NCBI RefSeq assembly: GCF_003334405.1
Contig: NZ_QOWM01000009.1
Source: Escherichia coli
GTDB lineage: Bacteria > Pseudomonadota > Gammaproteobacteria > Enterobacterales > Enterobacteriaceae
Direction: 5' to 3' (one strand)
DNA: 64,000 bases
A program made the translations under genes and the position numbers. Below, in pieces: positions 16,741 to 62,879 of the stretch (position 1 is the first letter of the stretch; the number at the start of each line of letters is the position of its first letter). The notes beneath the pieces were generated by a model, which was given only the letters and a program-made list of their open reading frames with translations, searched no databases and had not been told where the DNA came from.

Positions 16741-17409
16741 ATGATTCGCTTTGAACATGTCAGCAAGGCTTATCTCGGTGGGAGACAGGCGCTGCAGGGC
16801 GTTACGTTCCATATGCAGCCGGGTGAGATGGCGTTTCTGACCGGTCATTCCGGCGCAGGGAAAAGTACCCTCCTGAAGCTGATCTGTGGGATTGAGCGGC
16901 CCAGCGCCGGGAAAATCTGGTTTAGCGGCCATGACATCACGCGTCTGAAAAACCGTGAAGTTCCGTTTCTGCGCCGCCAGATTGGCATGATTTTCCAGGA
17001 TCACCATCTACTGATGGACCGTACTGTCTACGATAACGTGGCGATCCCGCTGATTATCGCCGGTGCCAGCGGTGACGATATTCGTCGCCGGGTGTCGGCG
17101 GCGCTGGATAAAGTCGGGCTACTGGACAAAGCGAAGAACTTCCCTATTCAGCTTTCGGGCGGTGAACAACAGCGTGTTGGCATTGCCCGCGCGGTGGTGA
17201 ACAAGCCCGCGGTACTGCTGGCGGACGAACCGACTGGTAACCTGGACGACGCGCTGTCGGAAGGCATTTTACGTCTGTTTGAAGAGTTTAACCGCGTTGG
17301 GGTAACCGTATTGATGGCAACGCACGACATCAACCTGATCTCGCGGCGTTCCTATCGCATGCTCACCCTGAGCGATGGTCACTTGCATGGAGGCGTGGGC
17401 CATGAATAA
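16741..17409 (+). CDS. ftsE: Cell division ABC ATPase FtsE
   Basis: 222 aa; Walker [10 protein letters not shown], signature LSGGEQQRV, Walker B LLADEPT. Confidence 0.95.
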
Positions 17410-18460
17410 GCGCGATGCAATCAATCATATTCGGCAGTTTGGCGGGCGTCTTGATCGCTTCCGTAAATCGGTCGGCGGCTCAGGCGACGGCGGTCGTAAC
17501 GCACCAAAACGCGCGAAATCCTCGCCAAAACCGGTAAATCGCAAAACCAACGTTTTCAACGAACAGGTGCGCTATGCCTTCCACGGCGCATTGCAGGATC
17601 TGAAAAGCAAACCGTTCGCCACGTTTTTAACGGTGATGGTTATCGCCATTTCTCTGACGCTGCCCAGCGTCTGTTATATGGTGTACAAAAACGTTAACCA
17701 GGCGGCGACGCAGTATTATCCGTCACCGCAAATCACTGTTTATCTGCAAAAAACGCTGGACGATGACGCTGCTGCGGGCGTGGTGGCACAGTTGCAGGCC
17801 GAGCAAGGCGTGGAGAAAGTGAACTATCTTTCTCGTGAAGACGCACTGGGTGAGTTCCGTAACTGGTCTGGTTTTGGTGGTGCGCTGGATATGCTGGAAG
17901 AAAACCCGCTTCCGGCAGTGGCGGTGGTGATCCCGAAACTCGATTTCCAGGGGACGGAATCACTGAATACGCTGCGTGATCGTATCACGCAGATTAACGG
18001 CATTGACGAAGTGCGGATGGATGACAGCTGGTTTGCCCGTCTGGCGGCGTTGACCGGGCTGGTCGGGCGCGTTTCGGCGATGATCGGCGTGTTGATGGTG
18101 GCGGCCGTGTTCCTCGTCATCGGTAACAGTGTGCGTCTGAGTATCTTTGCTCGCCGTGACTCCATTAACGTACAGAAACTGATTGGTGCGACAGATGGAT
18201 TCATCCTGCGCCCGTTCCTGTATGGTGGCGCACTGCTGGGATTTTCTGGCGCATTGTTGTCATTAATTTTGTCAGAAATTCTGGTGCTGCGATTGTCATC
18301 GGCGGTTGCGGAAGTGGCACAGGTTTTCGGAACGAAGTTTGATATCAATGGCTTATCATTCGATGAATGCCTGCTATTGCTGCTGGTATGCTCGATGATT
18401 GGCTGGGTGGCAGCGTGGCTTGCCACGGTACAACATTTACGCCACTTTACGCCTGAATAA
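17402..18460 (+). CDS. ftsX: Cell division ABC permease-like protein FtsX
   Basis: Start at MNKRDAINH (352 aa), 8-bp overlap with ftsE; 4 TM segments. Confidence 0.92.
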
Positions 18461-18585
18461 TAAAAGCGTGTTATACTCTTTCCCTGCAATGGGTTCCGTA
18501 GCAGGGAAAGAGACCCCGTTGTCTCTTCCCGGTATTTCATCTCTATGTCACATTTTGTGCGTAATTTATTCACAAGCTTGCATTG

Positions 18586-18611
18586 AACTTGTGGATAAAA
18601 TCACGGTCTGA
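18586..18611 (+). promoter_or_regulatory. rpoH P3 promoter, sigmaE-dependent (GAACTT-N15-TCTGA)
   Basis: GAACTTGTGGATAAAATCACGGTCTGA read directly, ~95 bp upstream of rpoH ATG; matches sigmaE -35/-10 consensus. Confidence 0.8.
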
Positions 18612-18704
18612 TAAAACAGTGAATGATAACCTCGTTGCTCTTAAGCTCTGGCACAGTTGTTGCTACCACTGAAGCGCCAGAAGATATCGATTGAGAGGAT
18701 TTGA

Positions 18705-19559
18705 ATGACTGACAAAATGCAAAGTTTAGCTTTAGCCCCAGTTGGCAACCTGGATTCCTACATCCGGGCAGCTAACGCGTGGCCGATGTTGTCGGCTGAC
18801 GAGGAGCGGGCGCTGGCTGAAAAGCTGCATTACCATGGCGATCTGGAAGCAGCTAAAACGCTGATCCTGTCTCACCTGCGGTTTGTTGTTCATATTGCTC
18901 GTAATTATGCGGGCTATGGCCTGCCACAGGCGGATTTGATTCAGGAAGGTAACATCGGCCTGATGAAAGCAGTGCGCCGTTTCAACCCGGAAGTGGGTGT
19001 GCGCCTGGTCTCCTTCGCCGTTCACTGGATCAAAGCAGAGATCCACGAATACGTTCTGCGTAACTGGCGTATCGTCAAAGTTGCGACCACCAAAGCGCAG
19101 CGCAAACTGTTCTTCAACCTGCGTAAAACCAAGCAGCGTCTGGGCTGGTTTAACCAGGATGAAGTCGAAATGGTGGCCCGTGAACTGGGCGTAACCAGCA
19201 AAGACGTACGTGAGATGGAATCACGTATGGCGGCACAGGACATGACCTTTGACCTGTCTTCCGACGACGATTCCGACAGCCAGCCGATGGCTCCGGTGCT
19301 CTATCTGCAGGATAAATCATCTAACTTTGCCGACGGCATTGAAGATGATAACTGGGAAGAGCAGGCGGCAAACCGTCTGACCGACGCGATGCAGGGTCTG
19401 GACGAACGCAGCCAGGACATCATCCGTGCGCGCTGGCTGGACGAAGACAACAAGTCCACGTTGCAGGAACTGGCTGACCGTTACGGCGTTTCCGCTGAGC
19501 GTGTACGCCAGCTGGAAAAGAACGCGATGAAAAAATTGCGTGCTGCCATTGAAGCGTAA
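18705..19559 (+). CDS. rpoH: RNA polymerase sigma-32 (heat-shock sigma factor)
   Basis: 284 aa; sigma-70 family regions; RpoH box [15 protein letters not shown]. Confidence 0.97.
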
Positions 19560-19579
19560 TTTCCGCTATTAAGCAGAGA

Positions 19580-19612
19580 ACCCTGGATGAGAGTCCGGGG
19601 TTTTTGTTTTTT
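19580..19612 (+). terminator. Putative rho-independent terminator after rpoH
   Basis: ccctggatgagagtccgggg followed by tttttgtttttt. Confidence 0.55.
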
Positions 19613-19829
19613 GGGCCTCTGTAATAATCAATTTCCCCTCCGGCAAAACGCCAATCCCCACGCAGATTGTTAATAAACTGTCAAAATAGCTATTCCAATA
19701 TCATAAAAATCGGGTATGTTTTAGCAGAGTATGCTGCTAAAGCACGGGTAGTCATGCATAAAACGAAACAAAGTGCTGAAAAACAACATCACAACACACG
19801 TAATAACCAGAAGAATGGGGATTCTCAGG

Positions 19830-58105: not shown

Positions 58106-58864
58106 ATGAAACAAACACAACGTCACAACGGTATTATCGAACTGGTTAAACAGCAGGGTTATGTCAGTACCGAAGAGCTGGTAGAGCATTTCTCCGTCAG
58201 CCCGCAGACTATTCGCCGCGACCTCAATGAGCTGGCGGAGCAAAACCTGATCCTGCGCCATCATGGCGGTGCGGCGCTGCCTTCCAGTTCGGTTAACACG
58301 CCGTGGCACGATCGCAAGGCCACCCAGACCGAAGAAAAAGAGCGCATCGCCCGCAAAGTGGCGGAGCAAATCCCCAATGGCTCGACGCTGTTTATCGATA
58401 TCGGCACCACGCCGGAAGCGGTAGCGCACGCACTGCTCAATCACAGCAATTTGCGCATTGTCACCAACAATCTCAACGTTGCTAACACGTTGATGGTAAA
58501 AGAAGATTTTCGCATCATTCTCGCCGGTGGCGAATTACGCAGCCGCGATGGCGGGATCATTGGCGAAGCGACGCTCGATTTTATCTCCCAGTTCCGCCTT
58601 GATTTCGGCATTCTGGGGATAAGCGGCATCGATAGCGACGGCTCGCTGCTGGAGTTCGATTACCACGAAGTTCGCACCAAACGCGCCATTATTGAGAACT
58701 CGCGCCACGTTATGCTGGTTGTCGATCACTCGAAATTTGGCCGTAACGCGATGGTCAATATGGGCAGCATCAGCATGGTAGATGCCGTCTACACCGACGC
58801 CCCGCCGCCAGTAAGCGTGATGCAGGTGCTGACGGACCACCATATTCAACTGGAGCTGTGCTGA
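58106..58864 (+). CDS. glpR: Glycerol-3-phosphate regulon repressor (DeoR family)
   Basis: 252 aa; N-terminal HTH STEELVEHFSVSPQTIRRDL. Confidence 0.93.
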   Translation: MKQTQRHNGIIELVKQQGYVSTEELVEHFSVSPQTIRRDLNELAEQNLILRHHGGAALPSSSVNTPWHDRKATQTEEKERIARKVAEQIPNGSTLFIDIGTTPEAVAHALLNHSNLRIVTNNLNVANTLMVKEDFRIILAGGELRSRDGGIIGEATLDFISQFRLDFGILGISGIDSDGSLLEFDYHEVRTKRAIIENSRHVMLVVDHSKFGRNAMVNMGSISMVDAVYTDAPPPVSVMQVLTDHHIQLELC

Positions 58865-60444
58865 TCCTGCACGGCTTCCCACGTCAGACCAAAACGCGCC
58901 AGGTATTTGCGTAGCCGATCCGCGTCATTGACGCTGGCTTTGCCCTGGCGCGAAACGTCAAAAAGCTGGCGTCCGGCTGCGGAAAGCGACTTTGCCTGGC
59001 GGCAGATAGCGATAACGTGTTCCAGTTGCATACGGTCGAAGAGATCGATGTTTTCTGCCTCTGCGCCCAGCAACGCCGTAAGCGCGGAGGGGCGGCTCTC
59101 CTGCCAGTTATAGCGCAGACGGTTTATCTCATCTTCAACCACGTCCAGAGTGATGCGTCCGCTAGTGGCAAAGGTGGCCATCCGCGTGACGCTGGCAGAA
59201 AGTTCGCGAAAGTTACCGCGCCATGTTGCCTGGGGAGAGGTCGCAAAAGCCAACCAGGCGCGCCGCGCTTCGGTGTTAAAACGCACGCTGTCGCCAGTGA
59301 GTGAGGCGTGGCGCTCCACTTCATAATCCAGGTTCGGTTCAATATCTTCCTGGCGCTGGCGTAGACCCGGCAGGGTGAAGGTCCAGAGATTGATCCGCGC
59401 GTACAGATCTTCGCGAAATTTGCCTTCGGCAACCAGCTGGCGCAAATCGCGCACCGTTCCGGCGATAAGCTGAAAATCACTGCTCACCTGGCGATCGCTG
59501 CCAAACGGGTAAAAGGTTTTCTCTTCAATGGCTTTCAGCAGCATTGCCTGTTCGTCTGCGCCCAGTTCGCCAATCTCATCAAGAAACAACATTCCGCCGT
59601 TGGCGCTGCGTAATAAACCTTCACGAGATTCCCGCGCCCCGGTAAACGCGCCTTTTACATGACCAAACAGCGTCGACATGGCGGTATCGCCGCGCAGGGT
59701 GGCGCAGTTCACTTCCACAAACGCGCCGCTAAACTGATGCCGCGCCTGTTTTAACTCGAAGATGCGTCGCGCCAGAAATGACTTGCCCGCGCCGGTTGGA
59801 CCGTTAAGCAGAATCGGCGCGCGGGATTTGATCGCCACTTTTTCGATCTGCTCAATCATGCGGTTGAAGTGGGGGTTACGCGTGGCAATGCCGGACTTAA
59901 GAAAATCAAGCGTTTGCTGGCGTTCCTCGGCAAAGCGGCTGGCGATGGCGTTATAACGGCTTAAATCGAGATCGATAATCGTTACTTCACCTGGGCCGCG
60001 CGGCTGTTCTTTTTTGCGCGGAGGTGAAGATTGTATCAGCCGGGCGGGCAGGTAACGCGCTTCTGCCAGCAGAAACCAGCAAATCTGCGCGACGTGGGTA
60101 CCGGTGGTGATGTGAATTAAATAGTCTTCTTTTTCTGGCTGAAACTCGTAACCACGGGCGAAATCATGCAGGCAGGCGTAGACCTCTTCGAAATCCCACG
60201 GGTTATGCAGTTCAATCTCAACGCTCACCACTTCTGTTTCTGGCGAAACGCTGGCGATATCGCGTTTAAGCGTTTCAAATAGCGAGCGCGAGCGGGCGTC
60301 GTGCAACAATTCCAGTCGATCGATGACCAACGATTCTTGCTGGCATAAACAGAGTGTCGGACGCCATTTTGACCAGCGCTGACTGCCGCGCCCGGCATAA
60401 TCCAGTACGGTACCGACAAAGCCAAAAGCCACTGTTTTACGCAT
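58846..60444 (-). CDS. rtcR: Sigma54-dependent transcriptional activator of rtcBA
   Basis: 532 aa; AAA+ Walker A GPTGAGKS and GAFTGA sigma54-interaction motif; 19-bp convergent overlap with glpR 3' end. Confidence 0.93.
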
Positions 60445-60578: not shown

Positions 60579-60594
60579 TGGCACGACGGTTGCA
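60579..60594 (+). promoter_or_regulatory. Sigma54 (-24/-12) promoter of rtcBA
   Basis: TGGCAC gacgg TTGCA read directly ~40 bp upstream of rtcB ATG. Confidence 0.85.
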
Positions 60595-60632: not shown

Positions 60633-61859
60633 ATGAATTACGAATTACTGACCACTGAAAATGCCCCGGTAAAAATGTGGACCAAAGGCGTGCCGGTAGA
60701 GGCCGATGCGCGTCAGCAACTTATTAATACGGCGAAGATGCCGTTTATTTTCAAACATATTGCGGTAATGCCTGATGTACACCTGGGTAAAGGTTCCACC
60801 ATTGGTAGCGTGATCCCGACCAAAGGGGCGATTATTCCGGCGGCGGTGGGCGTGGATATTGGCTGTGGAATGAACGCGCTGCGTACCGCGTTAACGGCGG
60901 AAGACCTGCCTGAAAACCTGGCAGAGCTGCGTCAGGCGATTGAAACGGCCGTGCCGCACGGGCGTACCACTGGCCGTTGTAAACGTGATAAAGGTGCCTG
61001 GGAAAATCCACCTGTTAACGTCGATGCTAAATGGGCTGAGCTTGAAGCCGGTTATCAGTGGTTAACGCAAAAATATCCCCGTTTCCTGAATACCAATAAC
61101 TATAAACACCTGGGAACGCTGGGAACCGGTAACCACTTTATTGAAATCTGCCTTGATGAGTCGGACCAGGTGTGGATTATGCTGCACTCCGGTTCACGCG
61201 GAATTGGTAACGCCATCGGGACTTACTTTATCGATCTGGCACAAAAAGAGATGCAGGAAACGCTTGAGACGTTGCCGTCGCGTGATCTGGCGTACTTTAT
61301 GGAAGGTACGGAATACTTTGATGATTACCTGAAAGCCGTGGCCTGGGCGCAGCTTTTTGCCAGCCTTAACCGCGATGCGATGATGGAAAACGTGGTAACG
61401 GCATTGCAGAGCATTACGCAGAAAACGGTCAGACAGCCACAAACGCTGGCGATGGAAGAGATCAACTGTCACCACAACTATGTGCAAAAAGAACAGCACT
61501 TTGGTGAAGAGATCTACGTGACGCGTAAAGGCGCGGTGTCTGCGCGTGCTGGTCAATATGGAATTATTCCCGGTTCGATGGGAGCAAAAAGCTTTATCGT
61601 CCGTGGGCTGGGAAATGAAGAGTCGTTCTGTTCGTGCAGCCACGGTGCCGGGCGGGTAATGAGCCGAACTAAAGCGAAAAAACTGTTCAGCGTGGAAGAT
61701 CAAATTCGTGCCACCGCGCATGTGGAATGCCGTAAAGATGCCGAAGTGATCGACGAAATCCCGATGGCGTATAAAGATATTGATGCGGTGATGGCGGCAC
61801 AAAGCGATCTGGTGGAAGTTATCTATACCCTGCGTCAGGTGGTGTGCGTAAAAGGATAA
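60633..61859 (+). CDS. rtcB: RNA-splicing ligase RtcB (3'-phosphate/5'-OH RNA ligase)
   Basis: 408 aa; conserved metal-binding His/Cys residues (HSGSRG, CHHN, SCSHGAGR). Confidence 0.95.
   Translation: MNYELLTTENAPVKMWTKGVPVEADARQQLINTAKMPFIFKHIAVMPDVHLGKGSTIGSVIPTKGAIIPAAVGVDIGCGMNALRTALTAEDLPENLAELRQAIETAVPHGRTTGRCKRDKGAWENPPVNVDAKWAELEAGYQWLTQKYPRFLNTNNYKHLGTLGTGNHFIEICLDESDQVWIMLHSGSRGIGNAIGTYFIDLAQKEMQETLETLPSRDLAYFMEGTEYFDDYLKAVAWAQLFASLNRDAMMENVVTALQSITQKTVRQPQTLAMEEINCHHNYVQKEQHFGEEIYVTRKGAVSARAGQYGIIPGSMGAKSFIVRGLGNEESFCSCSHGAGRVMSRTKAKKLFSVEDQIRATAHVECRKDAEVIDEIPMAYKDIDAVMAAQSDLVEVIYTLRQVVCVKG

Positions 61860-62879
<1,020 letters not shown>

Follow-up and report, generated by a model that had tools for sequence, protein, structure and literature searches.

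The control region of rpoH is already known and is among the most thoroughly mapped in Escherichia coli. A passage of PMC3661553 lists five closely spaced promoters, assigned to sigmaD/S, sigmaN, sigmaE and sigmaD, together with five transcription factors; taken with a passage of PMC9032294, the count is five promoters and five or six transcription factors. In E. coli K-12 the region comprises promoters P1, P3, P4, P5 and P6 and sites for DnaA and CRP/CytR. Promoter P3 is described in a section of PMC1851643 as transcribed exclusively by sigmaE, and rpoH P3::lacZ serves as the standard sigmaE reporter in the relevant sections of PMC1312014 and PMC1851643. At the level of the mRNA, PMC9032294, in a passage citing Morita et al. 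1999, describes extensive structure downstream of the start codon, made up of four stem-loops, which limits translation at low temperature. The closest counterparts of individual elements are the other sigmaE regulon promoters, such as micA, rybB and rpoE P2 (GGAACTT-N16-TCAAA), and the sigma54 promoter of rtcBA.

The stretch analyzed here, a window of 64,000 nucleotides, carries the same DNA as the K-12 rpoH region, with no difference. The 601 bases around the ftsX-rpoH spacer were 100% identical to E. coli K-12 MG1655, and each of the 5,426 complete E. coli genomes contained a match, 5,375 of them at an identity of at least 99%. Judged by its sequence, the stretch is therefore E. coli K-12 DNA with the known rpoH control region. 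The RefSeq annotation of the identical K-12 stretch places ftsY, ftsE and ftsX upstream and rpoH, livJ and panM downstream, in agreement with the gene calls of a preliminary description of this DNA, which had named ftsX and rpoH as the flanking genes. The 244-bp spacer given there was also recovered at 18461-18704, bounded by the last base of the ftsX stop codon (18460) and the first base of the rpoH ATG (18705). The genes and signals that frame the spacer are as follows.

17402-18460, plus strand: ftsX coding sequence, whose 3' end borders the spacer (RefSeq annotation of identical K-12 DNA and the list of open reading frames)
18693-18698, plus strand: rpoH Shine-Dalgarno sequence GAGAGG, 6 nt before the ATG and invariant in 13 species
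18705-19559, plus strand: rpoH coding sequence (sigma32, 284 aa)
19580-19612, plus strand: rpoH intrinsic terminator, read from the sequence, with stem ACCCTGGA / TCCGGGGT followed by a T-run

The GC-content of the spacer is 42.6%, compared to 52.7% in the window, and drops to 30% at 18541-18590. We consider it about 95% probable that the spacer is the well-studied rpoH regulatory region, in which promoters for different sigma factors are stacked and followed by an mRNA thermosensor. The K-12 identity, the motifs with their coordinates, the conservation and the in silico RNA behavior were computed in this work; the acting sigma factors and transcription factors were taken from the literature, and the precise start positions and the arrangement of the CRP site relative to P5 are what we infer. 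The sigmaE, sigma54, DnaA and CRP-like elements sit where the literature puts rpoH control, and the extended −10 of P1, the DnaA boxes, the CRP-like site and the sigma54 element are consistent with published rpoH regulation. Sequence elements could be placed for most of the published inputs, and the earlier characterization of the spacer as a dense regulatory region was accurate.

According to the proposed mechanism, P1 (18469-18477) would act as a constitutive extended −10 promoter served by sigma70 or sigmaS, and P3 (18585-18611) would let sigmaE activate rpoH when the envelope is stressed or heat is extreme. Two weak sigma70 promoters, P4 and P5, would lie slightly downstream of P3, and P6 (18649-18663) would be read by sigma54. 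The inverted DnaA boxes and the CRP/CytR site overlap P3, so that the replication initiator and carbon status could repress or tune the proximal promoters. Within the first ~250 nt of the mRNA, the start-codon region would pair with codons 59-63; translation would be low at 30 °C and rise as the start-codon helix melts.

Conservation was evaluated on an alignment of 13 sequences, comprising E. coli and 12 further Enterobacteriaceae loci. The Citrobacter and Enterobacter loci were obtained from a genome scan. The distant Enterobacterales (Photorhabdus, symbionts) were unalignable upstream of the gene, and ten Enterobacteriaceae loci found via RpoH protein clusters were used instead (Yokenella, Phytobacter, Kluyvera, Scandinavium, Pseudescherichia, Buttiauxella, Cedecea, Dryocola, a Klebsiella-labelled isolate and one metagenomic contig). 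The spacer is strongly diverged in this set, with a mean column identity of 68% and much of it unalignable. Blocks 18585-18598 (GAACTTGTGGATAA) and 18606-18611 (GTCTGA) were at least 90% conserved. The −35 and −10 elements of P3 thus fall within the best-conserved non-coding blocks of the spacer, and GAACTT is invariant in all 13 species.

The distal end of the spacer contains three elements.

18469-18477, plus strand: extended −10 element TGtTATACT of P1, matching TATAAT at 5/6 positions, with TG at −15/−14 and no recognizable −35
18478-18510, plus strand: conserved RNA hairpin (inverted repeat) directly after the P1 −10, arms CUUUCCCUGC / GCAGGGAAAG
18505-18530, plus strand: alternative hairpin, arms GGAAAGAGAC / GUCUCUUCCC, reusing the 3' arm of the hairpin at 18478-18510

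In the form TGnTATAMT, the −10 element was kept in 12 of the 12 other Enterobacteriaceae. It presumably represents the core of promoter P1, the use of which by sigma70 or sigmaS is given in a title cited in PMC3661553, and transcription would start at about 18484-18486. A conserved −35-like TTTAC (18446-18450) was rejected as promoter evidence, as it sits in ftsX codons. Scanning the spacer with the sigma70 consensus returned nothing above chance (one site, overlapping the ribosome-binding site and the ATG, versus 0.8 expected); consequently, P4 and P5 are not locatable from sequence. The spacer had been expected to hold its sigma70 promoters in AT-rich segments. Its AT-richness was confirmed, but the placement was borne out only in part: the one convincing sigma70-type element, that of P1, lies outside the most AT-rich stretch, which is largely occupied by transcription-factor sites (DnaA and CRP-like) and by sequence preceding P3.

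The hairpin at 18478-18510 showed clear comparative support. Across the 13 Enterobacteriaceae, 94.6% of the alignment cells in the stem were paired, compared to 44-59% in slid controls, and compensatory changes were observed in 5 of its 10 pairs. The loop varies between species in both length and sequence, which favors an RNA structure over a protein-binding palindrome of fixed spacing. The hairpin does not have the form of an intrinsic terminator, being followed by AAAGAG in place of a U-tract, and no terminator was called in 18300-18900. Since P1 transcripts are predicted to start past most of the 5' arm, the complete stem would be expected only in RNA reading through from ftsX. In P1-started RNA, folding with and without the 5' arm predicted that the 3' arm pairs downstream instead in most of the 13 species; in E. 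coli this alternative joins 18505-18514 with 18521-18530, a CCUGC-like downstream copy. The complementarity of the arm to downstream sequence exceeded that of shuffles in 9 of the 13 species (fraction ≤ 0.09), but not in E. coli. The 5' leader as a whole (18478-18704) folded better than all 200 shuffles (z = −3.6).

There is an even chance that this hairpin is a 3'-end structure of the ftsYEX transcript, acting as a stabilizer or weak terminator, and has no part in rpoH regulation. It begins 18 nt past the ftsX stop codon, its covarying stem indicates a functional RNA, and ~6 nt of the 5' arm fall between the P1 −10 and the predicted P1 start, which would leave the full stem to ftsX-derived RNA. 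This argument leans on a P1 start that is itself deduced, however, and a 3'-end role sits poorly with a hairpin lacking both a U-tract and a terminator call, while the second, downstream partner of the 3' arm in most species suggests a link to the rpoH leader. A more elaborate possibility, which we regard as rather doubtful, is that 18478-18510 and 18505-18530 form a switch set by transcript origin, in which ftsYEX read-through RNA pairs the 5' arm with the 3' arm and P1 RNA pairs the 3' arm with its downstream copy. If so, two classes of rpoH leader would differ in stability, processing (e.g., by RNase III) or termination. We know of no description of a hairpin switch at 18478-18530, with older rpoH literature lying outside the search, and the covarying hairpin with its alternative partner is the only item here that may be undescribed.

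Around P3, four elements overlap or lie close together.

18585-18611, plus strand: rpoH P3, sigmaE promoter, with −35 GAACTT (18585-18590), a 16-nt spacer and −10 TCTGA (18607-18611)
18566-18574, plus strand: DnaA box TTATTCACA, one mismatch, in the conserved block 18547-18574
18590-18598, minus strand: consensus DnaA box TTATCCACA, exact match, inside the P3 spacer
18590-18605, plus strand: CRP-like site TGTGGataaaaTCACG, 2 mismatches, centered on 18597.5

The preliminary description had reported an exact sigmaE-type promoter as GAACTT-N15-TCTGA at 18586-18611. The motif is present, but its placement was off by one in both start and spacing, the correct form being GAACTT-N16-TCTGA at 18585-18611. 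A spacer of 16 bp is the median length for sigmaE promoters according to a section of PMC1851643, which also notes an invariant C in the −10; this C is carried by the −10 context here, cGGTCTGA at 18604-18611. The published consensus quoted in part of PMC1312014 is GGAACTT / YGGTCAAAA, and the sequence tGAACTTgt...cGGTCTGAt agrees with the published motifs GGAACTTTT and (T/C)GGTCAAAA. P3 thus combines a −35, a spacer of about 16 bp and a −10 of the form TCNNA preceded by GG/GT, as sigmaE promoters do.

Compared with micA, rybB and rpoE P2, P3 is alike in GAACTT, the 16-nt spacer, the invariant C and AT-rich upstream DNA; a passage of PMC1312014 describes an AT-rich, UP-like sequence as usual upstream of sigmaE promoters, and one in PMC1851643 gives the micA promoter as 85% (−35) and 100% (−10) identical to rpoH P3. 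The E. coli P3 departs from the consensus by a T in place of the first G of GGAACTT, which is present in full in 9 of the 12 other Enterobacteriaceae. It also differs from ordinary sigmaE promoters in that its spacer holds a DnaA box and a CRP-like site. In genomic SELEX, reconstituted RpoE holoenzyme is reported to bind the rpoH-ftsX spacer with a peak intensity of 37.4, which is listed as high. In view of the reporter and SELEX literature, the motif singled out at the start is the published sigmaE-dependent rpoH P3, and the sigmaE-type reading of it holds. With the usual 6-bp discriminator, the P3 start is predicted at A18618, which would give an 87-nt leader.

The DnaA boxes at P3 form a 12-nt inverted repeat (18565-18576 / 18588-18599; arms TTTATTCACAAG / CTTGTGGATAAA), and the DnaA box region GTGGATAA is invariant in 13 species. 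A double box, tTTATCCACAagTTCAATGCAa, is reported upstream of rpoH in the portion of the DnaA ChIP-seq study dealing with this site, and the published sequence is an exact match to the minus strand at 18578-18599, which takes in the consensus box. The arrangement expected of paired DnaA boxes, a consensus 9-mer with a second box nearby, was therefore found. In a P1 transcript the two arms would also form an RNA hairpin across the −35 region of P3, and this hairpin appears in the minimum free energy (MFE) fold of the leader (z = −3.6, as above).

The CRP-like site was kept in 12 of 12 Enterobacteriaceae. CRP matches with 2 mismatches were not enriched in the window, and the motif alone is weak. 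Control of rpoH by CRP/CytR is stated in passages of PMC9032294 and PMC3454398, the latter a comparative CytR paper in which, in the part on rpoH, the CRP site scores are low. We infer that the site at 18590-18605 is the activator or CytR-partner site for the catabolite-sensitive P5. A cAMP-CRP/CytR cassette pairs two CRP sites at a distance of ~52-53 bp and has a CytR operator in the interval. Visual inspection showed a possible distal CRP site 52 bp from the CRP-like site, only its TCACA half (18548-18552) being good, and a TTGCATT motif at 18578-18584.

This overlap of sites raises the question of whether block 18585-18611 is kept solely as a DnaA and CRP/CytR operator, its likeness to a sigmaE promoter being incidental. 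A sigmaE promoter can do without spacer positions 18591-18598, yet they are unchanged in all 13 Enterobacteriaceae, and the consensus DnaA box and a CRP-like half-site fall on them; DnaA also binds the rpoH upstream region in vivo in the published ChIP-seq data as far as they are reported for this locus. However, the sigmaE elements persist where the operator does not. We searched 90 gamma- and betaproteobacterial loci for a sigmaE-type motif (GAACTT with ≤1 mismatch, N15-17, TCNRA) within 350 nt upstream of rpoH. It was found in 36 of the 90, versus 2.7 expected, at 80-200 nt upstream of the gene; the version with exact GAACTT was found in 21 loci, versus 0.16 expected. In loci beyond Enterobacteriaceae the sequence of the promoter spacer is not conserved, and recurrence of the motif without it indicates that the −35 and −10 are selected as a promoter and not merely as part of an overlapping operator. 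Moreover, RpoE holoenzyme needs no other factor to bind the spacer in vitro, and P3 is the standard sigmaE reporter, in the parts of the literature cited above. An operator alone is thus a very improbable explanation of the block; the operator and sigmaE promoter readings are not mutually exclusive, and the sites overlap by design.

Least probable of all, and already refuted by the conservation data, is a chance match of GAACTT-N16-TCTGA in an AT-rich spacer: an 11-base flexible motif can arise by chance, and GAACTT-N15-17-TCTGA did so in 1 of 100 shuffled windows, but the single match in the 64-kb window compares with 0.02 expected from shuffles, is invariant across 13 genera amid diverged flanks, recurs across proteobacteria and is backed by the experimental literature on P3 (sections of PMC1851643 and of the RpoE SELEX report).

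Downstream of P3 lies a sigma54 element.

18649-18663, plus strand: sigma54 element TGGCAC-N5-TTGC (rpoH P6), exact match

An exact element of this type occurs twice in the 64-kb window, at rpoH P6 and at the rtcBA promoter. The second copy (TGGCACGACGGTTGC, 60579-60593) is flanked by rtcR (58849-60444, minus strand) on one side and rtcB/rtcA (60633-62879, plus strand) on the other; it is the known sigma54-dependent rtcBA promoter and a useful internal control. The rtcBA element is identical to that of rpoH in TGGCAC-N5-TTGC and adjoins a sigma54 activator gene, rtcR, whereas rpoH has no adjacent gene for an enhancer-binding protein. The table of the Salmonella RpoN regulon, in the portion covering rpoH, includes this gene with the activator entered as 'NK' (not known), and a passage of PMC9032294, quoting EcoCyc, names ZraR among the transcription regulators of rpoH.

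The rpoH sigma54 element was kept in 7 of the 12 other Enterobacteriaceae. It is missing from four loci (L087-L090: Buttiauxella, Cedecea, Dryocola and the Klebsiella-labelled isolate), which retain the sigmaE promoter, the DnaA box and the P1 −10 and differ in the proximal leader (AGTCTTTAAGAGAGGGTTTGAATG). Its absence there means that sigma54 input to rpoH is lineage-restricted within the family. Sigma54-dependent transcription of rpoH was reportedly the subject of work by Pallen in 1999 and by Janaszak in 2007, to go by the titles. Transcription from P6 is predicted to start at about 18675. This position, like the predicted starts of P1 (~18485) and P3 (A18618), was derived from motif geometry. 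The curated rpoH leaders, which we take to be ~220, 87-88, 80, 60-66 and 30 nt long, would agree with the three predictions at ~220, 87-88 and 30 nt.

The rpoH mRNA was analyzed over the following segment.

18686-18951, plus strand: rpoH thermosensor, mRNA segment −19 to +247, with an MFE fold that buries the start codon

In the MFE fold, positions −3 to +9 (18702-18713) pair with +177 to +188 (18881-18892). The partition function gave an unpaired probability of the AUG of 0.02 at 30 °C, rising to 0.07 at 37 °C, 0.24 at 42 °C, 0.44 at 45 °C and 0.69 at 50 °C, whereas that of the whole molecule shifted just from 0.32 to 0.42. When the downstream sequence was shuffled, 98 of 100 controls had a start region less buried at 30 °C than the real one. 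Folding of the rpoH 5' region, proposed earlier as a check, thus gave a start codon that is buried and, in silico, becomes accessible over the range 30-50 °C. The overall stability of the segment was unremarkable (z = −1.5).

RNAalifold on 20 species yielded a weak consensus (−16.6 kcal/mol) in which the start-codon helix was not recovered; for this reason, the E. coli MFE structure was tested explicitly. Over the 20 species, from E. coli to Vibrio, Aeromonas and Shewanella, 81.9% of the cells were paired, versus 33-42% in slid controls, a comparison in which the structure was derived from E. coli, one of the 20 sequences. Compensatory pairs numbered 24 (8-19 in slid controls) and the covariation score was 0.154 (0.05-0.09 in slid controls). 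A buried start that opens with heat and conservation of the structure in relatives, the two marks of an RNA thermometer, were thus both observed in silico. An Rfam scan of 18300-19700 with E up to 10 returned chance-level matches only and no thermometer family; one of these matched the rpoH terminator (19580-19612) to the rnk leader.

The locus resembles the rpoH thermosensor of Morita et al. 1999 in its temperature-sensitive downstream structure, the likeness being to the description in PMC9032294 and not helix by helix. That the first part of the rpoH coding sequence forms an RNA thermometer had been stated as known in the preliminary description; folding, comparative counts and the passage in PMC9032294 all support this remark, which concerns sequence from 18705 on, outside 18461-18704. 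Among Enterobacteriaceae, synonymous sites appeared unusually conserved at 18850-18900 (rpoH codons ~50-65, stretch GGCGATCTGGAAGCAGC...CTGATCCTGTCTCACCTGCGCTTTGTTGTTCAT; unquantified), which fits a constraint on RNA structure in the thermosensor. A separate 16-nt pairing of 18551-18566 with the start-codon region 18704-18719 (81% complementary) is probably due to chance and was rejected, as most of the pairing is lost in relatives, whose sequence at the start is ACCAAAGAAATG.

Taken together, a textbook multi-sigma promoter region can be recovered from raw sequence, which adds nothing to the biology of rpoH itself. The conserved hairpin at the ftsX/P1 junction is the sole point perhaps worth checking, in existing RNA-end data.
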